Shown here one piece after another: positions 8,451 to 37,723 of a stretch of 46,615 bases of DNA; position 1 is the first letter of the stretch, and every line of letters starts with the position of its first letter. The notes beneath the pieces were generated by a model that saw nothing but the letters and a program-made list of their open reading frames with translations, was not told the origin of the DNA and searched no databases. This DNA comes from a virus. Made by a program: the position numbers and the translations under genes. Where the stretch lies: positions 1-46,615 of IMG/VR virus record IMGVR_UViG_3300045988_123937; one strand, given 5' to 3'.

Positions 8451-9685
8451 TATGCAGCTATTTGAATAAGATTCTTGAATTCAGACTGAACGGCATATCT
8501 GGCAGCGTCCCATAGATGGTTGAATTCGTCGTGCGGGTAGTTTATGGCGATGCCGTTCACCGTCTCCCACACGTACGAGTTTGCTTCTATCTGCATGTTG
8601 CGCGAACGCACGCAATGTATCTTGCATCCTTTCATGGACGTGATGCCGTCCATGACAGACCCCGGGTATTTCCGCACGGGGATGACCGTAAGCCCTTTAA
8701 TGCGCATTGCGGTTATCATGCTTTCGGGGGATTTGGCATATTTGTCGGCGCTATCTGCATAACATCGGGATACTCCGTTTGAGAAGTGCGGCGAAAGCGC
8801 TGCATATAATTTCGAAGTGTCGTCGATAGGCTGATATATCAGCTCCTGCAAATAAAGATGGTTCGGGGCGCGGAATCCGACACGTACGCAGGCCGTGGGG
8901 TCTGCTGTGAATCCGAAGTCGAGGCCCAATACAACGCGTTCGATGTCTTCGGGGAATTCGTCGATCCAGTCGATGTCGGGGAATATCAGCCCCTCCTGCG
9001 CGGCACGTACTCCGAGGCCGTACACTTTCCAGCGCCATTCGTCGGCAGTTCCGGCGGCGATATTCTCGGGAGTGGGTTCGTATCCCTCGATTGTGCGGCG
9101 AACCCCCGCCGGGCAGAAGGGATTATCCTTGTACGTCGTGTGCGTGAAAATAGTATCCGGAGCGCCCTCCATATGGAACGCCCAATGCTCCGTGTATTTT
9201 GGGTTCCAGTCGCCAATGACCATCCGCGTGCAACGCATGGTGATATTGTCGAATTGCGCACGGCTTACACCGTCGAGCATCTCGTTGAAATATACGATGT
9301 CGCAGTCATGGCCCTCTTTGACATCCATTTTGTCGAGACCCCGGAAACGAATCACGCTATCCTTGATGCGATATTCGGGGAGAATGTTTTCGCCACGCAT
9401 ACAATCGGGATCGTATGCGCCGCGTAATTGCAGCTTCTTGCGGAAGTCGTCCAGCGTCTTTTCCTTGCAATCTTGAAGCGTGGCCCGATAACAGTATATT
9501 TTAAGAGGTACGGACGATGATGCGCAGATGTCATACAGAAAGTCTGCCGTGTCGAAAGTTTTTCCGGATCGGGAGCTTCCTTCGTCGAAGATACGGACGA
9601 CGGCGCCGCTCCCGGCGTATAGCTGGTAGAGGTACATCTTGACTTTGTAGGTCTTGCCTCTGTATGTTACGGGATCGGGCGTCAT
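8450..9685 (-). CDS. terL: Terminase large subunit
   Basis: 411 aa; Walker A-like GSSRSGKT; C-terminal nuclease-like half; canonical position. Confidence 0.9.
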   Translation of the reverse strand: MTPDPVTYRGKTYKVKMYLYQLYAGSGAVVRIFDEGSSRSGKTFDTADFLYDICASSSVPLKIYCYRATLQDCKEKTLDDFRKKLQLRGAYDPDCMRGENILPEYRIKDSVIRFRGLDKMDVKEGHDCDIVYFNEMLDGVSRAQFDNITMRCTRMVIGDWNPKYTEHWAFHMEGAPDTIFTHTTYKDNPFCPAGVRRTIEGYEPTPENIAAGTADEWRWKVYGLGVRAAQEGLIFPDIDWIDEFPEDIERVVLGLDFGFTADPTACVRVGFRAPNHLYLQELIYQPIDDTSKLYAALSPHFSNGVSRCYADSADKYAKSPESMITAMRIKGLTVIPVRKYPGSVMDGITSMKGCKIHCVRSRNMQIEANSYVWETVNGIAINYPHDEFNHLWDAARYAVQSEFKNLIQIAA

Positions 9686-13053: not shown

Positions 13054-13470
13054 TCACGGTTTATCCGTCAGTTCATCCTGCTTTTTTTCGACTGCACCCA
13101 ACCGTCGAGAGAGGACTTCATCGTCACCCTTGGAATTCAGCTGTCGAAGCAGAGCTTTGATTTGTTCATCTTTTACAACAAGCTGCTCTTTCAGGGTGTT
13201 GATGTAGTCCGATGTTATTGGATCCATCTTCGCCTGTGTGTTTGTTGGGTTAATACTGTTGTTATCTAAATGCGTTGCGTCGCATTGTTCCGTTATATAT
13301 TTATTGATTTTATCGCCCAATGCTTGCTTTAATCTAATAATGTGTTCTTCCCTTAACGAACCTTTACCAGATAAAACGGTAGAAACCTGCGGCTGTCTTA
13401 ACCCCATAATTGCGCCTAATTCTTTTTGACTTAACCCAAGTTCAGCCTTAAGTCTCTTTATATCAATCAT
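13054..13470 (-). CDS. XRE-family HTH repressor (CI-like) with a C-terminal coiled coil, 138 aa
   Basis: MIDIKRLKAELGLSQKELGAIMGLRQPQVSTVLSG HTH; ORF trimmed to the ATG at 13470. Confidence 0.8.
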   Translation of the reverse strand: MIDIKRLKAELGLSQKELGAIMGLRQPQVSTVLSGKGSLREEHIIRLKQALGDKINKYITEQCDATHLDNNSINPTNTQAKMDPITSDYINTLKEQLVVKDEQIKALLRQLNSKGDDEVLSRRLGAVEKKQDELTDKP

Positions 13471-13640
13471 TTTATAAAACTGTGGGATATTATAAAAAAT
13501 AATTATACAATATATTTCAATAACTATTGAATATATCCAATACAAACCTTATATTTGCATTGTGGAATTGAACTACACCGCAAAGGTAAATAGTTCTACG
13601 CCGCAAAACAATGTAAAGATATATAAAAAAGATTGAAACA
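13471..13640. promoter_or_regulatory. Divergent control region 1
   Basis: TATATTTG -7 box at 13550-13557 (+). The segment ATATTTGCATTGTG...GCAAAGGTA..ATAGTT...AAAATGTAAA.ATATA.AAAAAA is shared with 14749-14832. Confidence 0.6.
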
Positions 13641-13707
13641 ACCAAATCCGAAAGGGCAAAATAGTGCGCCAATAGGGTTTACAAATGTTCTTTGAATACA
13701 TTTCATT

Positions 13708-13899
13708 ATGCTTGCATTAACGGTGTTGCAAATACTGAATGTTGCATTATTGATAACGGCCATATGGTTACGGCTCGACGCGCTGCGCATACGGCGTAGA
13801 CGTTTGACTGTATTAAAAGAGATTAGAAAGATACAGAATAAGCGCCTTGACCATCCTTTCATGGCTGGACGAAGCAATAACGGAATACCAATCCTATAA
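13708..13899 (+). CDS. Possible small membrane protein, 63 aa
   Basis: Hydrophobic N-terminus followed by RIRRRR; downstream of the control-region-1 promoter; overlaps the 3' end of the convergent gene. Confidence 0.3.
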   Translation: MLALTVLQILNVALLITAIWLRLDALRIRRRRLTVLKEIRKIQNKRLDHPFMAGRSNNGIPIL

Positions 13900-14380
13900 C
13901 CATTAATATAAACGAAATATATGCAACCATCTCACAAACCGAAAAGAACCTCGATATTTCGACGCGTGAAATTATTTTGCATTCGCCGTCAACGATCAAA
14001 GCGTCGTCGGCAGGAATCAAAAGTGTTTCTTTTAAGTCATCAAATCGTTCTTCGATTCTGTGCATTACCTGACTTGTGGCGCGAATATTTTGATACAGAG
14101 CGGCCGAAAGAGCAAGCAGACATATTCCGTTCAGCAATACTGTCGCAATGCTTATCCAATATGTGCAATCCGGATAGCAAGCATGTATGCCACCCGGATT
14201 GCCCGATATGGGCCGCCCTAATGAGCAAACCAAAGTCAGAATAGTAGCCGACGCAACAAACATAGTGGAGTGGACGCGGTATTTCCATACGGCGAGCTCG
14301 TCAAAGTAGGCGTTACGGTCCCTGATAAGTGCATCGGCGTACCTGATAACGAGTTGGCCCCGCGGGCTTAACGGTTGCAT
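13859..14380 (-). CDS. Integral membrane protein, 173 aa (candidate exclusion/abortive-infection effector)
   Basis: About three hydrophobic spans; starts 2 nt after the stop of HTH gene 14383..14679. Confidence 0.7.
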   Translation of the reverse strand: MQPLSPRGQLVIRYADALIRDRNAYFDELAVWKYRVHSTMFVASATILTLVCSLGRPISGNPGGIHACYPDCTYWISIATVLLNGICLLALSAALYQNIRATSQVMHRIEERFDDLKETLLIPADDALIVDGECKIISRVEISRFFSVCEMVAYISFILMVIGLVFRYCFVQP

Positions 14381-14382
14381 GA

Positions 14383-14679
14383 TTAGTTCTTTGATGTTAG
14401 GTTTTTTATGGTTTCGGAAAGGTTCTCGATGGTGCGCTGCTGGGAGGCAACCAAAGCCAGCAATGCGGGAACCGTGGGAGCGGGGGCGACGTTGGAGTCG
14501 TCGATAACGTAATCGTCAATGTCGGCATATCGACTGCATAATATGTCCATATGCTCAGGCGTAAATCCGTCGCCGTTCTTCTCCATTCGAGAAATGCGGC
14601 TTTGATCCATTCCCAACATATTTGCGAGTGCCGCCTGTGTTAACCTTTTGTCTTTTCGAAAACGTTTGAAATCAATCAT
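14383..14679 (-). CDS. XRE-family HTH regulator, 98 aa, paralogue of 13054..13470
   Basis: MIDFKRFRKDKRLTQAALANMLGMDQSRISRMEKNG; trimmed to the ATG at 14679. Confidence 0.8.
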   Translation of the reverse strand: MIDFKRFRKDKRLTQAALANMLGMDQSRISRMEKNGDGFTPEHMDILCSRYADIDDYVIDDSNVAPAPTVPALLALVASQQRTIENLSETIKNLTSKN

Positions 14680-14832
14680 ATACAAAGGGACTATTAAAAA
14701 ACCTATAAAAATATGACATAAAATTTGCATAATTAAAATAATATGTACATATTTGCATTGTGATACACGGCAAAGGTATAGTTACCTGCCGATTATTAAA
14801 ATGTAAAAATATACAAAAAAACGATAATAACA
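14680..14832. promoter_or_regulatory. Divergent control region 2 (early-operon promoter and operators)
   Basis: Two TTTGCAT motifs; leader hairpin CGGC-aa-AGGTA-tagt-TACCT-GCCG; about 85 nt similar to 13551-13640. Confidence 0.6.
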
Positions 14833-17112: not shown

Positions 17113-17197
17113 GGAGGGTTGGCCGAGTGGTTGAAGGCTCCGGCTTACTAATCCGGCGAGCGGCAACGCTTCGGGAGTTCGAATCTCTCACCCTCCG
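17113..17197 (+). tRNA. Type II (Ser-like) tRNA with an atypical anticodon arm; the nominal anticodon ACU sits in loop TTACTAA closed by a C-U mismatch (or a 9-nt loop, CTTACTAAT)
   Basis: Acceptor GGAGGGT/ACCCTCC; D arm GCC..GGC with AGTGGTTGAA; long V arm GAGCG-GCAA-CGCTT; T arm GGGAG-TTCGAAT-CTCTC. Confidence 0.7.
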
Positions 17198-17343
17198 CAA
17201 CCCCTTTGTTGATGGTGCAAGTAGAGCGACGATAGCGCAAGGGATTATTGCCGATTGCGCGGCAATGACAAAGCGGAACAGACGCTTGACTCTATCGGAC
17301 AGGTTATACGAAAGCATCTGACAGCCTGGAAAGACAGGCATTT

Positions 17344-32786: not shown

Positions 32787-32876
32787 GTGTCTATTTTTAC
32801 AGATAGGCGCAAATTGTGTGAGCAACGGCAAAAAATTAGGAGTTGCAAACTATTGCAACCCCTTGATTTTTAATTG

Positions 32877-32921
32877 TGGAGAATACGAGATTCGAACTCG
32901 TGACCTCTTGCATGCCATGCA
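32877..32921 (-). other. attP core candidate: 3' portion of a tRNA gene (T arm plus acceptor strand)
   Basis: Minus strand reads ...GCAAGAGGTCACGAGTTCGAATCTCGTATTCTCCA; no matching 5' half is present. Confidence 0.7.
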
Positions 32922-32930
32922 TATTTTATT

Positions 32931-32960
32931 GGTTTTCATGGCTTTTCATAGCTTTTCATA
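32931..32960. repeat. Three tandem 10-bp repeats, G(G/C)TTTTCAT(G/A); candidate integrase arm sites
   Basis: GGTTTTCATG GCTTTTCATA GCTTTTCATA. Confidence 0.6.
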
Positions 32961-32999
32961 TCGTTTACAACAACACTTGTCAAGCAATTTTATTTTTCA

Positions 33000-33017
33000 T
33001 ATCTTTGCATATCTTTG
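33000..33017 (+). promoter_or_regulatory. Duplicated -7 boxes upstream of int
   Basis: TATCTTTG at 33000-33007 and 33010-33017. Confidence 0.5.
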
Positions 33018-33052
33018 CACGCAATAAATAAGATGTGTGCAAATAATGTGCA

Positions 33053-34282
33053 ATGAACAACCACTACTATTCAAAGGATGGCGTAACGGTGGCCACTATT
33101 CTCGACACCCGCCGGGCGTTGGCAAATGGCCAGTATCCCGTGCGTATCCGGGTATCGTATCGTCGTGTGCGCTCTTATTACCCAACCGGTAAGAGTATGA
33201 TGCCCGATGATTGGCAGCGGCTCAATGCGACGCGCCTTCATTCGCTTGTATCCGTTCGCAAAGATATAGAAAATAGTTTTGAATTGGTTCGACAAGCTGT
33301 CGAGGATTTAACGTCAAAAGGTTGTTTCACGATTGAATTGTTAGGTGCTCGTTTGAAAGGAGCCGGCGCTACTTCGGTAAATGCATCCATCCAAATCAAA
33401 GAGCAGGAATTGCGGGAGACATCCCACATAGGGACGGCGGATATTCTGCGTGCATTGTTGCTGTCGATGAATGCTTTTTCAAAGCGGGAGGTTCAATATA
33501 TCGACGTATCTATTTCATGGCTGCGTCGATTCGAAGAGTTTATGCGTGCTTCGGGTAAGGGACAGACAACTATTGCGATATATATGCGCGCTCTGCGATC
33601 GATATTCAACCAGGCACGGGCTATTGGTATTGTAAAGGAAGCGCAATATCCATTCGGTCGGGGGCGCTACGAGATACAGGAAGGAGAGGGGCGTAAACTG
33701 GCCCTTACATTGGAGCAGATAGGCTTGATAGCCCGTTATGATGATGGATACGAAGCAACAGCAAAATACCGCGATTATTGGCTGTTTATGTATTTGTGCA
33801 ATGGAATCAATGTCGCCGACTTCGTAAGGTTGCGATATAGTGATATTGAGGACGGGGAAATAAGTTATGTACGGAAAAAGACGGAGCACCGCACAAAGTC
33901 CCGGAAAGCCGTGCGGGCGATAATTGTACCTCAAATGCAGGATATTATATCACGATGGGGCAACAAAGAAAGTCCTGATAGTTTTATATTTCCTATTCTT
34001 ACGGGCAAAGAATCTATTGAGGAGCAGCGGCAAAAGGCAAAAGACCTAACAAGCTGCATAAATCGTAAATTTAGGTCTATTTCCAAAGCATTAGGGTTGC
34101 CTCCGGTTTCAACATATACGGCCCGCCATTCATTCGCCACCGTATTGAAGCGTTCCGGGGCAAGTATAGCCTATATTTCCGAAAGCCTCGGACATACGGA
34201 CTTGAAGACGACAGAAAATTATCTCGCTTCTTTTGAACGAGAAGAACGAGAGAAAAATGCCGCATTGCTGACGCGGTTTTGA
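33053..34282 (+). CDS. int: Tyrosine site-specific integrase
   Basis: 409 aa; ARHSFATVLKRSG...LGHTDLKTTENYL catalytic region; N-terminal arm-binding-type domain. Confidence 0.9.
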   Translation: MNNHYYSKDGVTVATILDTRRALANGQYPVRIRVSYRRVRSYYPTGKSMMPDDWQRLNATRLHSLVSVRKDIENSFELVRQAVEDLTSKGCFTIELLGARLKGAGATSVNASIQIKEQELRETSHIGTADILRALLLSMNAFSKREVQYIDVSISWLRRFEEFMRASGKGQTTIAIYMRALRSIFNQARAIGIVKEAQYPFGRGRYEIQEGEGRKLALTLEQIGLIARYDDGYEATAKYRDYWLFMYLCNGINVADFVRLRYSDIEDGEISYVRKKTEHRTKSRKAVRAIIVPQMQDIISRWGNKESPDSFIFPILTGKESIEEQRQKAKDLTSCINRKFRSISKALGLPPVSTYTARHSFATVLKRSGASIAYISESLGHTDLKTTENYLASFEREEREKNAALLTRF

Positions 34283-34394: not shown

Positions 34395-34424
34395 GCGTCC
34401 CCGCAATTAATGCGAGGACGTTTT
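34395..34424 (+). terminator. Terminator hairpin after int (convergent with the late operon's end)
   Basis: CGTCCCCGCA-attaa-TGCGAGGACG followed by TTTTT. Confidence 0.7.
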
Positions 34425-34425
34425 T

Positions 34426-34956
34426 CTACGTCAGTTCATCTTCGAAATACTCTCGGATAAAGTGCTTCCGATCCTTGTCGCAGAGTTTCTCCACGGCTTT
34501 CCGGTAGCAAGATCGCGCCATTTTTTCGGACGGAATATCAGCCGGCGAAGCGTGTCCCATATCCTCGGCGATACTCTTGGCGTGATCGCTGTATATCATT
34601 ACAGCCGTAACCCATAGGGCATTGTCGTTGTAATACGGCTCCTTTTCGACCTCCCCGTCCAGCTTTTCCACGGTTTGCAGGAATGCGTCCTTGCTCCATT
34701 TTGCTCCGGTGTTTCCGTCTTGGTTTACGAGCTTCGCGGCGATCATCTTTGCCTCGGCGTCTGACAGGTAATTATACCAGCATATCGCCTCCATTTTCCC
34801 AAGCCACATTTCGGCGATGGTCGGCGACGTTTCCGCGATTTTCCCGAATGCCCACATCTGGGCTCCCGCGAACACCTTTTCTGCGTGCTCATCGTCCATG
34901 CCGGCCATCTTGTCATGTAGCCGCTCGTATCGTTCTTTCATTTCACTTGATGTCAT
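34426..34956 (-). CDS. Hypothetical protein, 176 aa (GTG alternative at 34974)
   Basis: Last gene of the accessory cassette. Confidence 0.65.
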   Translation of the reverse strand: MTSSEMKERYERLHDKMAGMDDEHAEKVFAGAQMWAFGKIAETSPTIAEMWLGKMEAICWYNYLSDAEAKMIAAKLVNQDGNTGAKWSKDAFLQTVEKLDGEVEKEPYYNDNALWVTAVMIYSDHAKSIAEDMGHASPADIPSEKMARSCYRKAVEKLCDKDRKHFIREYFEDELT

Positions 34957-35029
34957 ATCTAACAGTTTTTGCACGCCCGAACCCGCGGCAGCGGTTTATA
35001 TACTCCCACGATATTTGGCGTATGGATTA

Positions 35030-35347
35030 TTACTGCCGGTTCGACCTTTTCTTTTGAGGACGTTGATCCGGGTTTCTTGTTGTTCTTTGCCATAATATTT
35101 CGTATAATTTCTCCGCACCATAATATGCGAATCCGACCCAATTAGCAATGTATGCCATAAATAGGGATAGCCCTACCGCACATAGTATGTTGCATCCGTT
35201 AACGAGCAGCACAAAGAGCGTAGCCCAGAACGAGAGGCATTTCGGGCATGCCATGACCTGGCTGCCGATCTGCGCGATCTTCTCGGCCAGCCCGAGGTGC
35301 TGCGCAATGGTGGCGCATATCATAGTGAGCAGGGCTATCCACAGCAT
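35030..35347 (-). CDS. Small multi-pass membrane protein with a CPKC motif (reminiscent of DUF1360)
   Basis: MLWIALLTMICA...VMACPKCLSFWATLFVLL...; three hydrophobic spans. Confidence 0.7.
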   Translation of the reverse strand: MLWIALLTMICATIAQHLGLAEKIAQIGSQVMACPKCLSFWATLFVLLVNGCNILCAVGLSLFMAYIANWVGFAYYGAEKLYEILWQRTTRNPDQRPQKKRSNRQ

Positions 35348-35351
35348 ACCG

Positions 35352-35795
35352 CTACGCTGTTGGGGTTGCGGCCGTTGCCACCGTTACGGTGATCGGCGTC
35401 TCCGATACGAATGTCCGGCTGCACGGCTGGCAGGCTGATGCCGCCACGGCGTTCATCGCGGCTCCCTGCTCGATGGTTACGGTGGGTGTCGATGCCGACT
35501 GAATGGGAATCGTGAAATCCTGCGAGAGAGGTTGCTGCTTGGTGCATCCGCATCCGCCGTTACACGGAACATAAGAGATGATGCCCTCGACATGGACGGT
35601 AGCCACATAGCGTCCGGTCCCAACTTGTGACAGCGATTTCAACGAGAACTGCGGATTGAATACCGGAGTGTTGTCTGCGCACGTCGGATAGCAAAGCCGC
35701 TGGGTGATGTTCACCTCATAAAAGTACGGCGAAGCCACCGATCCGGCTGCCAGAACGGGTGTAATAACAGCCGCTTGAATTTTGTTACAGTTCAT
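35352..35795 (-). CDS. Cys-rich, probably exported protein, 147 aa
   Basis: Hydrophobic N-terminus; 8 Cys including CNGGCGC and CQPC. Confidence 0.7.
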   Translation of the reverse strand: MNCNKIQAAVITPVLAAGSVASPYFYEVNITQRLCYPTCADNTPVFNPQFSLKSLSQVGTGRYVATVHVEGIISYVPCNGGCGCTKQQPLSQDFTIPIQSASTPTVTIEQGAAMNAVAASACQPCSRTFVSETPITVTVATAATPTA

Positions 35796-35806
35796 AAAAT
35801 GGGTAA

Positions 35807-36034
35807 TTATTTAGTTTTGCCTCCTACTGTCTCTATTTTTTCATCCGCGCCGGAGGCATTAGGCTCGGAGGTAGGGTATAGTGCATCGTATATCGCATTT
35901 ATTTTCGCCTCGAAGGCGTCTACGCGGCCGTGCAGCGTCACGATATTGTCGTTGGTTACCTGCACGCCAAACAGAATCTGTTCGAAAAGGTCCCGCGGCT
36001 GACGCGGTTCCTGGGGATTGGTGTTCTCGCTCAT
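35807..36034 (-). CDS. Hypothetical protein, 75 aa
   Basis: ATGA overlap with the upstream gene. Confidence 0.6.
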   Translation of the reverse strand: MSENTNPQEPRQPRDLFEQILFGVQVTNDNIVTLHGRVDAFEAKINAIYDALYPTSEPNASGADEKIETVGGKTK

Positions 36035-36222
36035 CGTTTCAGAAAGTTTTGCACGAAAAAGTTGTTCTTGTATTTTATCAGCAGGTCTTTCAGTTTGGAT
36101 GCCGTCACGAGCCCTCCTCGCTGGTAGTTCTCGTTCACGAAATCATAGGCTGTCTGCTGCACCTCCCGGGCTTCCTGCTCGGATTCAGCATATATGTATA
36201 TTTCGATCTTATAGGGTTGCAT
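36031..36222 (-). CDS. Hypothetical protein, 63 aa
   Basis: ORF in the operon. Confidence 0.55.
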   Translation of the reverse strand: MQPYKIEIYIYAESEQEAREVQQTAYDFVNENYQRGGLVTASKLKDLLIKYKNNFFVQNFLKR

Positions 36223-36225
36223 GGC

Positions 36226-36579
36226 TTATAGTTTCGGTAGTGGTGGGACATCGGCTACGGGAGCAGCGGCGCTCACGGTGCTTATAGGCTCTCCGCTTCT
36301 GATAGTTCTGAATAGATTGTAGGCGCCGACTAATTTGTCTTGATTGGCATCGGCCCATCCGAACAGCTCCCCGATGGTTGTTTTTGCCTGCTGGAGCATC
36401 GATGGCGGTACCGGGTCGAAATCGGGGACCTTCTCCATGTCTTTCATGTAGAAATCATACATCCGCTCCATCGTGGCTACATCGCCTTGATACATCTGCA
36501 TAAGCGATCTTTTCAGGGCGTCTTTGGATGTTGTGCGGATTGTGTCCATATTGTGATACTCTTTTTTAGCGAATAGCAT
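36226..36579 (-). CDS. Hypothetical protein, 117 aa (alternative ATG at 36549)
   Basis: ORF in the operon. Confidence 0.6.
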   Translation of the reverse strand: MLFAKKEYHNMDTIRTTSKDALKRSLMQMYQGDVATMERMYDFYMKDMEKVPDFDPVPPSMLQQAKTTIGELFGWADANQDKLVGAYNLFRTIRSGEPISTVSAAAPVADVPPLPKL

Positions 36580-36602
36580 ATCGTAGCGGTTTTAAGGGTT
36601 AA

Positions 36603-36612
36603 GGGGGGGGGG
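36603..36612. repeat. Homopolymeric G10 tract (C10 on the coding strand), 23 nt upstream of the ATG at 36579
   Basis: Counted directly; 3' arm of the minus-strand hairpin GGGGAGGGGCGG-gat-CCGCCCCCCCCCC. Confidence 0.9.
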
Positions 36613-36637
36613 CGGATCCCGCCCCTCCCCGGAAGGG

Positions 36638-37114
36638 CTAACCCTGGCACGTGTCGCAACCACAAGGCTGCGGGGCGGAATACCTCGCCACGCGGAGGAA
36701 ATTGCACCCTCCAATGGCGGAGTTGAGCCCCGAATTGCCATTGATCGCCTGAGCCAGCGCGATTGCTTCGGCGTTCGACAGCGCGTTAGCGCCTGCCCCG
36801 GCGCCTGCACCTGCCCGTACATCAACGTACTGGCTGATCGTAGGGGCATGGTTGTTCTGCCAGCCCTCACGCGAAACGCGCTCCTGGAGCTGCGTCCGGG
36901 CGAGGATGTCGATGGCCTTGCTTGCACCCTCGCTGCGAGCTTTGGATGCCTGGTTAATGCCCCAGATTCCGGCTGCAGCCAGAAGGAGTGCGCCGCCGCC
37001 CAGACCAGCAGCCAGACCGATACCCGTGGCGGCCATGCCGTCGCGGTGCTTGTAGCAATGGCGATTGCTCTCCCACATAGCCAGATCGCCCGACGTTAAA
37101 TAATCTGCTTCCAT
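36638..37114 (-). CDS. Single-pass membrane protein with a Gly/Ala-rich span and a C-terminal CGCDTCQG motif, 158 aa
   Basis: TM AATGIGLAAGLGGGALLLAAAGIWGI; AGAGAGAGA tract; first gene of the cassette. Confidence 0.7.
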   Translation of the reverse strand: MEADYLTSGDLAMWESNRHCYKHRDGMAATGIGLAAGLGGGALLLAAAGIWGINQASKARSEGASKAIDILARTQLQERVSREGWQNNHAPTISQYVDVRAGAGAGAGANALSNAEAIALAQAINGNSGLNSAIGGCNFLRVARYSAPQPCGCDTCQG

Positions 37115-37162
37115 GTATATACATGATTTCGTCCGCCTCTTACCTCTTCAGCGATTGAGGTA

Positions 37163-37214
37163 GCATTGTATTATAGCTACAATGCAAAGGTGGTCAGGCT
37201 CGGCAGGGTGGTCA
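37163..37214 (-). promoter_or_regulatory. Candidate promoter/operator of the accessory cassette
   Basis: Minus strand: TGACCACC x2 followed by TTTGCATTGTA-gctataa-TACAATGC (8-bp palindrome); TTTGCATTGT is shared with the switch promoters. Confidence 0.5.
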
Positions 37215-37529
37215 ACGGGATGATTCGAAGGCTATGCGCACTTTGTTCGCAATGCGTTCAAAGGTCACTTTGAAGATGTGTCCGCTTTGAGAGAGGCGGT
37301 CCTCGAACTGAGAAAGCATTTTTTCGATACCTCGGCGAGAGAAATGCATCATGCGGGCGATCTCGCTGATGTATATACCTTCGCGCCGCAATAGATGAGC
37401 GAGCATGTAACGGGCATCAACCGTTTCGGCCGTGCGACAACACGAAAGGATTTGCTCGGATGTCAATTCCGTTTCATTTGCAACAATATCAAGTATTTTT
37501 GCAAAAATCTCGGTTTTACGTATCTCCAT
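37212..37529 (-). CDS. HTH regulator related to the DnaA C-terminal DNA-binding domain
   Basis: TAETVDARYMLAHLLRREGIYISEIARMMHFSRRGIEKM. Confidence 0.65.
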   Translation of the reverse strand: MEIRKTEIFAKILDIVANETELTSEQILSCCRTAETVDARYMLAHLLRREGIYISEIARMMHFSRRGIEKMLSQFEDRLSQSGHIFKVTFERIANKVRIAFESSR

Positions 37530-37554
37530 ATCAAATATTTAGTTTAAATTTGAC

Positions 37555-37636
37555 ATACCACTAATGTAAAAAGCCATACACCCGAATTAAGGAATAGTCC
37601 TCAATGCTCGGTGCGTATGGCACACATTAGTGGTAT
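37555..37636. repeat. Long inverted repeat: 13-bp perfect outer arms plus 7-bp inner arms
   Basis: ATACCACTAATGT..GCCATAC (37555-79) and GTATGGC..ACATTAGTGGTAT (37615-36). Confidence 0.85.
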
Positions 37637-37723
37637 AATGGAGAGGAGCGTTGGGGACTTTTTATGCTCATTCCCCAATCGCATGGGCTTATATTATTAC
37701 ATAGGCGACTTTTCTTTATATCT

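Follow-up and report, generated by a model that had tools for sequence, protein, structure and literature searches.

The stretch of DNA analyzed here, IMG/VR record IMGVR_UViG_3300045988_123937 (46,615 nucleotides, taken at its full length and called the window below), carries at 34426-37529 on its minus strand a tightly packed operon of a helix-turn-helix (HTH) gene and seven small open reading frames (ORFs). The original prediction, made from the letters of the sequence, had described a self-contained cassette of small Cys-rich and membrane proteins at this place together with a DnaA-C-like HTH gene, and the seven ORFs and the HTH gene were all recovered on the minus strand with the sizes and positions that it gave (Table 1). 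Cassette genes abut or overlap by a few bases, with junctions either overlapping or 4 nt apart. Purifying selection has kept all eight ORFs in more than 100 related loci, and they are therefore real genes. The last of them can be read mechanically as 182 residues from an upstream GTG at 34974; its homologues start at the ATG, which is most likely the true start.

Searches of the cassette proteins against Pfam, PHROGs, NCBIfam and PADLOC returned a match of the last protein to Pfam DUF7841 and a subthreshold match of the HTH protein to the DnaA C-terminal domain, and nothing else, so that six of the eight proteins have no family in these collections. As had been stated before, neither Pfam nor PHROGs tied a cassette protein to a virion or lysis family. 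No defense-system model in PADLOC-DB matched the seven cassette proteins, and a WYL-type HTH model was the sole match of the regulator (E = 0.027). Sequence-profile searches of the PDB with c147, c117, c63, c105 and the DUF7841 protein found no relatives, and inspection of the translations found no lipobox in any cassette protein. The HTH protein matched Pfam Bac_DnaA_C with E = 3.7e-5 and 24.1 bits, under the cutoff of 31.5; its conserved VDAR motif fits the DnaA domain IV type, and third-party records label it "chromosomal replication initiator protein."

Our main finding is that 34396-37682 forms an accessory transcription unit that is autonomous and can be exchanged horizontally, a large moron of a sort typical of Bacteroidales phages. 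It has its own promoter, recognized by its motif, and a terminator at its end, and it is present, absent or replaced among close relatives. With a regulator gene, a promoter/operator-like region and a terminator of its own, the cassette deserves the earlier description as self-contained, and we hold it to be very probable that it is a self-contained module that can be exchanged.

Table 1. Features of the module and of its integrase-side context in the window
Feature	Position	Strand	Remark
GC-rich short hairpin (GGGGA...TCCCC)	37648-37682	-	Directly behind the spanin-like DUF6808 gene; resembles a terminator at the end of the lysis operon
Long, nearly perfect hairpin/inverted repeat	37555-37636		5' boundary of the module; perfect arms of 13 nt
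TAAATTTG, perfect TAnnTTTG -7 box	37545-37552	+	Opposite strand to the cassette; points into the long hairpin
HTH protein, 105 aa	37212-37529	-	DnaA domain IV-like; presumed regulator of the module
Promoter/operator-like region	37163-37216	-	GTTG, 20 nt, then CACCTTTG
Leader stem-loop CGCy-GAAGrGnnAAGA-GGCG	37133-37154	-	Conserved, as CGCC-GAAGRGnnAAGA-GGCG in one large group
c158, 158 aa	36638-37114	-	Bitopic membrane protein
c117, 117 aa	36226-36579	-	Soluble helical protein
c63, 63 aa	36031-36222	-	Small beta-alpha protein
c75, 75 aa	35807-36034	-	Small helical protein
c147, 147 aa	35352-35795	-	All-beta; most conserved protein of the module
c105, 105 aa	35030-35347	-	Membrane protein with three transmembrane segments
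DUF7841 protein, 176 aa from ATG	34426-34956	-	Last gene in both cassette types
Terminator-like hairpin, 10 pairs and T-rich tail	34396-34420	-	Directly after the last cassette gene
Tyrosine integrase	33053-34282	+	Convergent with the cassette; context, outside the module
attP region with 3' part of the tmRNA (ssrA) gene	32874-33052	-	Partial Rfam tmRNA match; context

Exchange and distribution of the module

An integrase-anchored search gave 19 phages with an integrase at least 96% identical to that of the window, 15 of which carry the cassette of the window (type A). The other four of these near-identical phages (L139, L147, L148 and L149) keep the HTH gene and have different genes behind it (type B), and the HTH gene is retained at 91 to 100% identity in relatives with the other cassette type. 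In L139, the first type B gene encodes a phrog_16490 protein of 284 residues with a Gly/Trp-rich transmembrane segment, a Pro/Cys-rich tail and, in a long helical region rich in Q and N, many Cys. It is followed by genes for a beta-rich protein (170 residues), a phrog_28898 protein with a C-terminal coiled coil (168 residues), a highly charged peptide (92 residues), a DUF7841 protein (133 residues, E = 1.6e-34) and a PolyVal-like HExxH peptidase. In an alignment of A and B, identity stops right after ...CCACCTTTGCATTGTAGCTA (...TTTGCATTGTAGCTA), just past the promoter-like box and inside a palindrome described below. What the two types have in common is the HTH gene at the front, the DUF7841 gene at the back and a bitopic protein whose C-terminal tail is rich in Pro and Cys. 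Between them, hhalign matched HTH with HTH, c147 with a protein of the crAss-like phage cr116_1 (gp023) and, weakly, DUF7841 with DUF7841. The phrog_16490 protein, the first structural gene product of type B, resembles c158 in its Gly-rich transmembrane segment and Pro/Cys-rich tail, but hhalign detected no homology between the two.

Type B is not confined to these phages. The 74-kb Bacteroides phage C3_41T2LP, isolated on B. uniformis, has a DnaA-like HTH gene, an HNH insert and the same five or six type B genes; the insert (L217, 3994-4614) is a gene for an I-HmuI-type HNH endonuclease that separates the first type B gene from the HTH gene, and its insertion junction is the A/B exchange junction of the Alistipes phages. 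Homologues of the long type B protein occur in about 35 GenBank records, mostly of crAss-like phages, where they are labeled "spike protein/glycoprotein" or "outer capsid protein/viral fiber." These labels probably reflect coiled-coil similarity only, and for the "spike" label, a computational guess, we found no experimental basis. Two records with such homologues, NC_092586.1 and NC_134205.1, name Methanomassiliicoccales (archaea) as host; this assignment is questionable, unless the family extends to phages outside Bacteroidales.

In cr116_1 the module lies between the endolysin gene and a gene next to that of the major capsid protein, and crAss001 has a 235-bp gap at the corresponding site and no phrog_16490 homologue in its record. 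The second gene of the cr116_1 module, gp023, belongs to the c147 family (hmmsearch E = 7e-10 at Z = 1e5) and stands beside the type B protein, so types A and B mix. The HTH protein of this module is of a different family (excisionase-like or small-terminase-like), which means that the "front end" of the module can be replaced as well. Two small HExxH metallopeptidase-like proteins (VOG3488, PolyVal-like) are also encoded within the cr116_1 module (L216, 4507-4854 and 7087-7482).

Over larger distances it is the gene order of type A that is kept. A search of IMG/VR with the 147- and 158-residue proteins yielded 104 loci. In about 50 distant ones, at 30 to 77% identity to the window, the order HTH-c158-c117-c63-c75-c147-c105 is intact, and within 10 kb on each side they have almost nothing else in common with the window. 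Even a contig with a very distant c147 member keeps the same neighbors. All genome matches were to Bacteroidales, including Alistipes, Bacteroides, Prevotella, Muribaculaceae, Paludibacteraceae and Cryptobacteroides, or to bins from the same samples, and identical copies of cassette proteins are on record in Alistipes putredinis, A. shahii and Phocaeicola plebeius. A DNA-level search of GenBank phages gave no match to the cassette region, nor to half of the window. The sole GenBank phage match to a type A protein was Bacteroides phage BS162P1, an 88.9-kb sewage isolate grown on B. salyersiae and found through its DUF7841 gene. Its module is complete and in the same order (96, 166, 117, 68, 77, 146, 105 and 173 residues) and sits among genes of replication and nucleotide metabolism (D10-like helicase, DNA polymerase and QueE-like); no homologue of int409 was found in this phage. 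Other phage contigs also carry the module without an integrase nearby. Its carriers include temperate phages as well as phages in which no integrase was detected close to the module.

The original prediction had placed the cassette between the lysis genes and attP and had read it as attP-proximal cargo for lysogenic conversion or defense. It does follow the lysis genes, but attP lies beyond the integrase and is not directly adjacent. Likewise, its nature as exchangeable accessory cargo stands (15 type A, 4 type B), whereas a specific tie to attP does not, given BS162P1, the crAss-like phages and the contigs without integrase. The position of the module usually goes with the end of the lysis genes and shows no tie to attP or lysogeny: the module of the window, like that of cr116_1 and those of most distant loci, adjoins lysis genes on their downstream side and on the same strand. 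The endolysins upstream are nonhomologous (phrog_873 type, Peptidase_M15_3, GH108 with PG_binding_3, Glucosaminidase, DUF5675 and weakly GH19-like), and BS162P1, C3_41T2LP and L094-type contigs are exceptions to the adjacency. The adjacency can be read in two ways: it may be a functional link with lysis, or morons may land preferentially at the end of the late operon, like bor in lambda.

The 5' side of the module is variable in its own right. The stretch between the endolysin and HTH genes differs among IMG/VR relatives (L003, L016, L018, L026 and L029): several near-identical phages have about 2.4 kb of other sequence in place of the DUF6808 gene, and in others this gene is only 48 to 49% identical. 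Recombination thus has a second hot spot here, right where the module begins on its 5' side. In L069, which has a distant type A module, a HicA/HicB-like toxin-antitoxin pair, recognized by eye, lies between the spanin-like and HTH genes at 8710-9355.

A moron-like accessory unit is a known kind of thing. Like lambda bor past Rz/Rz1, or the conversion region between lysin and attP in temperate phages of Gram-positive bacteria, the cassette is an independent transcription unit that follows the late or lysis operon and has a promoter and a terminator of its own. Close relatives have it, lack it or have another in its place, and membrane proteins are among its products. Unlike these morons, it is larger, with eight genes that include a dedicated regulator, its order is kept at 30 to 50% identity across unrelated phage types, it is also found in integrase-less and crAss-like phages and none of its proteins is homologous to a known moron product. 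What is new is the size, the dedicated front end (hairpin, antisense box, HTH gene, promoter and leader), the two interchangeable payloads, the spread over phage families including the crAss-like phages and two confident protein models without relatives in the PDB. We found no literature or curated family that describes the module when searching for DUF7841, DUF6808, BS162P1 and C3_41T2LP.

Regulatory DNA

Structured DNA marks the boundary between the lysis genes and the module. Hairpins of the form GGGGGC...GCCCCC, analogous to the short GC-rich hairpin of the window, are found at the equivalent place in distant loci. The long inverted repeat of 37555-37636 that had been pointed out before is real, folding far better than shuffles (z = -6.4). 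Its structure is kept across lineages whereas its sequence is not, and no Rfam family matches it. Upstream of the HTH gene, a minimum free energy (MFE) z-score of -4 or lower was found in 19 of 26 nonredundant loci and in 2 of 80 controls, and near-perfect inverted-repeat arms of at least 12 nt in 17 of 26 loci and 2 of 80 controls. We used z-scores and repeat length instead of the pair count of the MFE structure, which failed to separate these regions from others (106 of 200 controls passed).

In Bacteroides promoters, the established -7 element of the Bacteroidetes is TAnnTTTG, with CAAAnnTA as its reverse complement. The copy in the window, TAAATTTG, lies a few bases from the base of the long hairpin. 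CAAAnnTA was present 17 to 31 nt before the HTH ATG in 14 of 26 nonredundant loci (7 of 200 controls), and a -7 box on the sense strand upstream of the HTH gene in 1 of 26 regions (26 of 200 controls). The simplest reading is that the reverse-facing box is a putative promoter that would fire away from the cassette into the hairpin. This predicts either a small structured (antisense) RNA or a combination of promoter and hairpin that would insulate the module from read-through of the lysis operon. The plus strand of 37545-37640 is a candidate small RNA. Hairpin and antisense box recur together before the HTH gene in many unrelated lineages.

Ahead of the first cassette gene, the operator-like region that the original prediction had described is likewise real, with two copies of TGACCACC (37189-37196 and 37207-37214), the palindrome GCATTGTA-N7-TACAATGC at 37163-37185 and a promoter-like box. 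The -7-like box CACCTTTG occupies 37185-37192, and the palindrome lies at the predicted transcription start. A count of two for TGACCACC in the window is not unusual, being reached by 25 of 100 shuffles. The evidence for the cassette promoter is the motif: the -7 box before the first cassette ATG is exact in 13 of 19 nonredundant loci and one mismatch away in the remaining 6, and it stands at fixed distances from the ATG, -48 to -55 or -74 to -83. Lineage-specific palindromes, of which that of the window is one, follow the -7 box at the predicted start site. Judged by this conservation of sequence, the operator-like region is a real and conserved promoter and leader. The palindrome could be an operator for the HTH protein or a 5' RNA stem. 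Farther down, the leader stem-loop recurs in type A leaders that have diverged strongly and also in a single type B relative, L148; in RNAalifold it has 5 pairs, 4 of them with compensatory changes.

One motif connects the cassette with the immunity region, as had been claimed of the lysogeny-switch promoters. There are three exact copies of TTTGCATTGT in the window, at 13554+, 14752+ and 37179-, and 10 sites with at most one mismatch against 4.1 expected, a number reached by 0 of 100 shuffles. The copies at 13554+ and 14752+ are promoter-like -7 boxes that point rightward in the immunity region, and one of them faces the early operon beside XRE-type repressor genes. The shared motif hints that the cassette and the immunity region may be coregulated; the sequence would fit either repression or activity of the cassette in lysogens.

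Cassette proteins and their possible function

The Cys motifs listed by the original prediction (CGCDTCQG in c158, CNGGCGC and CQPC in c147 and CPKC in c105) are all present, and the core Cys residues are nearly invariant across the families. Its assignment of one transmembrane segment to c158 and three to c105 agrees with hydropathy. Two other parts of its reading, the export of c147 and a disulfide-dependent envelope system, are unlikely.

The identity of c147 to its counterparts in distant loci is mostly 50 to 77% (lowest value, 31%), while the other cassette proteins are typically at 30 to 55%. The exact sequence of the window is present on about 970 public contigs, and the family comprises at least 744 clusters at 90% identity; an exhaustive profile search gave 72 representatives at 50% identity, all of 120 to 180 residues, and no tie to any known family. 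The protein has 8 Cys, 6 of which are almost invariant and form the pairs C35/C39, C78/C84 and C122/C125. An AlphaFold2 model (predicted local distance difference test [pLDDT] score, 89.9) is all-beta with strands of 11 to 17 residues, and Foldseek found no match to it with E < 0.01 or a TM-score above 0.4 among PDB and viral models. The top matches, secretin barrels and levivirus coats, were discarded at TM-scores below 0.3 and root mean square deviations above 9 Å. The N terminus of c147 is its best-conserved stretch and is modeled as a strand of the fold, and hydropathy gives no signal peptide and no hydrophobic segment of transmembrane grade. On conservation, model and hydropathy together we rejected c147 as a convincing exported protein. 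Because it has no transmembrane-grade segment and is most conserved at its N terminus, we regard it as probably cytoplasmic or membrane associated, and not exported.

In c105, the CxxC before the second transmembrane segment is invariant (55 of 55 sequences), as is an HLG motif. Since loop 1, which bears the CxxC, and the basic C-terminal tail are both Lys/Arg-rich, the positive-inside rule predicts that the CxxC is on the cytoplasmic face. The protein has a single CxxC and no DsbB-, VKOR- or CcdA-like or thioredoxin-like match in Pfam or NCBIfam, and no thiol-oxidoreductase family matches any cassette protein. A third-party label of c105 as DUF1360 was rejected, with 2 of 16 members matching and a best E of 0.13. 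With c147 probably not exported, the CxxC predicted to face the cytoplasm and the host strictly anaerobic, the evidence favors metal-binding Cys clusters over disulfides in the cassette proteins. Strictly anaerobic Bacteroidales are thought to form few structural periplasmic disulfides.

In c158, a Gly-rich transmembrane segment (residues 28 to 52, approximately) is followed by a low-complexity AG linker and a conserved ...RYSAPQPCGCDTCxx tail, which ends in CGCDTCQG in the window and whose Cys151, Cys153 and Cys156 are kept in 43 to 45 of 46 sequences; its orientation is not predictable from charge, and it has no match in Pfam, PHROGs (spanin PHROGs included) or the PDB. The DUF7841 protein scored 29.1 bits against PF25223, above the cutoff of 25.2, a match that is precomputed for nearly all its homologues, and its AlphaFold2 model (pLDDT, 94.7) is all-helical with no fold match in the PDB by Foldseek. 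An invariant PDxD motif and a PP(L/I)P motif at the C-terminal end mark c117, and c75 is swapped in some lineages for a CxxxCxxC...C variant. Third-party annotation calls c63 "RNA polymerase inhibitor," and we rejected its membership in the T7 Gp2 type: Pfam RNA_pol_inhib matched 1 of 18 members (E = 0.019), and hhalign against T7 Gp2 gave 47% probability over 19 columns only.

How the module might work can be outlined as follows. The terminator-like hairpin, the hairpin of about 80 nt and the reverse-facing host-type -7 box would form an insulating 5' boundary, with the small DnaA-domain-IV-like HTH gene as the next part of the unit. Behind it, the host-type promoter and structured leader would drive the coinherited block c158-c117-c63-c75-c147-c105-DUF7841, and expression, from a promoter readable by the RNA polymerase of the host, would be independent of the late operon. 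The products may assemble at the cytoplasmic membrane, where c158 with its CxCxxC tail and c105 with its cytoplasm-facing CxxC would anchor the six-Cys c147 and small soluble adaptors, and shared metal sites, probably of Zn, would hold the complex together rather than periplasmic disulfides.

For the function of the module, the reading that we favor, and then only tentatively, is phage-phage competition at the envelope, by superinfection exclusion or by blocking the DNA entry of rivals. A conflict-related accessory function is suggested because the cassettes swap in isogenic backgrounds and have a host-type promoter. Such alternatives are expected where a function is under an arms race. The exclusion systems of T4 (Imm and Sp), P22 (SieA), HK97 (gp15) and T5 (Llp) resemble the module in being small inner-membrane or envelope proteins that occur in temperate and virulent phages and are accessory and fast swapping, but they have no sequence or fold similarity to it. 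Several points weigh against competition at the envelope. To our knowledge, the known superinfection-exclusion systems consist of one or two genes, not seven, and PADLOC, Pfam, NCBIfam and PHROGs gave no match to a known exclusion or defense family. c147 is unusually conserved for a component of an arms race, and the presence of at least five nonhomologous lysis cassettes directly upstream could mean a role linked to lysis. Finally, the second arm of the palindrome is lost in type B relatives that encode an identical HTH protein, which leaves its role as an operator uncertain. An exclusion or defense role, which the original prediction had raised, is therefore something that we infer, with no match among the known defense families of PADLOC.

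The next candidate, rather less probable than competition, is a lysis-accessory module whose membrane proteins tune the timing of lysis or breach the outer membrane or capsule of Bacteroidales, with c105 as a holin- or antiholin-like protein and c158 and the long type B protein as spanin- or fusion-like proteins. The place of the module after the lysis genes, which is kept despite the nonhomologous endolysins, speaks for it. Like class I holins, c105 has three transmembrane segments and a basic tail, and it gave a weak match to a holin/antiholin PHROG (E = 0.016). Like Rz of the Rz/Rz1 spanins, c158 and the type B protein have an N-terminal transmembrane segment, a helical, ectodomain-like region and C-terminal Cys. 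That PHROG match is marginal, however, and the c105 gene is about 3 kb from the endolysin gene in a separate unit, which terminator-like hairpins plus a convergent promoter box set apart from the lysis genes and which has its own promoter. There is no lipoprotein partner, and holin-like, endolysin and spanin-like genes are already present upstream in the window. BS162P1, C3_41T2LP and the L094-type contigs lack adjacent lysis genes, crAss001, whose record lacks the module, lyses its host without it, and four soluble, probably cytoplasmic proteins and an HTH regulator would be unexpected in a lysis device.

A takeover of the host or an attack on its defenses from within the cytoplasm seems unlikely. 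Here c63 would be a Gp2-like polymerase binder, the DUF7841 protein and the PolyVal peptidases would be effectors and the membrane proteins would be no more than anchors. The third-party label of c63 and its local beta-alpha likeness to T7 Gp2 agree with this idea, as do the PolyVal annotation of the type B HExxH peptidases, the position of the module among replication genes in apparently virulent phages and the swapping of cassettes that is typical of counterdefense loci. The likeness to Gp2 is weak, however, as the figures given above make plain, both membrane proteins count as invariant in type A, and no known anti-defense family matched.

Slightly less likely again is the disulfide-dependent envelope system of the original prediction, a form of lysogenic-conversion cargo near attP in which a CxxC membrane oxidoreductase would serve exported Cys-rich partners. 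The cassette does adjoin the integrase in temperate members, its Cys motifs are strongly conserved, its promoter is of host type and its cargo is exchangeable. The lack of a signal peptide or transmembrane segment in c147, whose N terminus is part of the fold, the predicted cytoplasmic position of the CxxC of c105 and the failure to match Dsb, VKOR or thioredoxin-like families all count against it, as do the anaerobic host and the phages that carry the module without an integrase nearby, the sewage isolate BS162P1 among them. Proteins of the virion or of its assembly (head or tail decoration, or ejection) are the most doubtful candidates: the module ends the structural/late gene block, crAss-like records carry the "spike" and "capsid" labels and c147 is beta-rich and highly conserved as structural proteins are, but the module is optional in close relatives and swappable by type, has its own regulator, promoter, terminators and transmembrane segments and matches no virion family in PHROGs and no viral structure model.

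On a wider view, and with a little more reserve than for competition at the envelope, A and B could be versions of an unrecognized class of multiprotein, Cys/metal-stabilized membrane machines. These would be plug-in cassettes in most gut Bacteroidales phage lineages, including the crAss-like phages, controlled by the HTH protein and a hairpin small RNA, and would decide phage-phage competition or a new step of egress or lysis control. If this were true, c147 and the DUF7841 protein would be new folds with new biochemical roles. Bacteroidales phages are the dominant part of the human gut virome, and for most of their genes no function has been assigned. The module is common among them, crosses phage families and lifestyles and exists in at least two interchangeable versions, a pattern of spread and interchangeability that is expected under conflict-driven selection. 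A role in superinfection or lysis control would help to explain the coexistence of phages and strain-level phage resistance in the gut. In practical terms, the module is a defined, portable unit of eight genes with a compact promoter and leader for work in Bacteroides or Alistipes.

The surrounding phage genome

The window is the complete genome of a temperate tailed phage of an Alistipes prophage type. Genes for head, portal, terminase and tape-measure proteins occupy both of its ends, on the minus strand, and the immunity and early region takes up 12-33 kb. On the minus strand, the genes leading to the cassette are those of the tail fiber (41461 to 39944), a protein of 136 residues, a holin-like protein with three transmembrane segments, an Rz-like protein, a small protein with two transmembrane segments, the endolysin (phrog_873, E = 4e-51) and the DUF6808 protein, which is spanin-like with an N-terminal transmembrane segment. 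On the other side of the cassette, the tmRNA fragment immediately upstream of the integrase gene matched the Rfam model over positions 106-374 (E = 9e-8), and the tmRNA gene of the host is the probable integration target, with the ssrA fragment as the attP of the phage.

In the immunity region, at 13480-14800, XRE-type HTH genes are found at 13054-13545 and 14383-14730, both on the minus strand. There are two "face-to-face" promoter pairs here, in each of which a plus-strand TAnnTTTGCATTGTG is followed 15 to 23 nt on by CAAAGGTA, a -7 box of the minus strand, and the predicted starts would overlap by just a few bases. Of the two tRNA genes in the window, ARAGORN placed a tRNA-Ser with the anticodon ACT at 17113-17198, adjoining a tRNA-Gln(TTG). 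It is unusual for a Ser tRNA to have A as its wobble base, and the call may be an error or point to a special decoding role.

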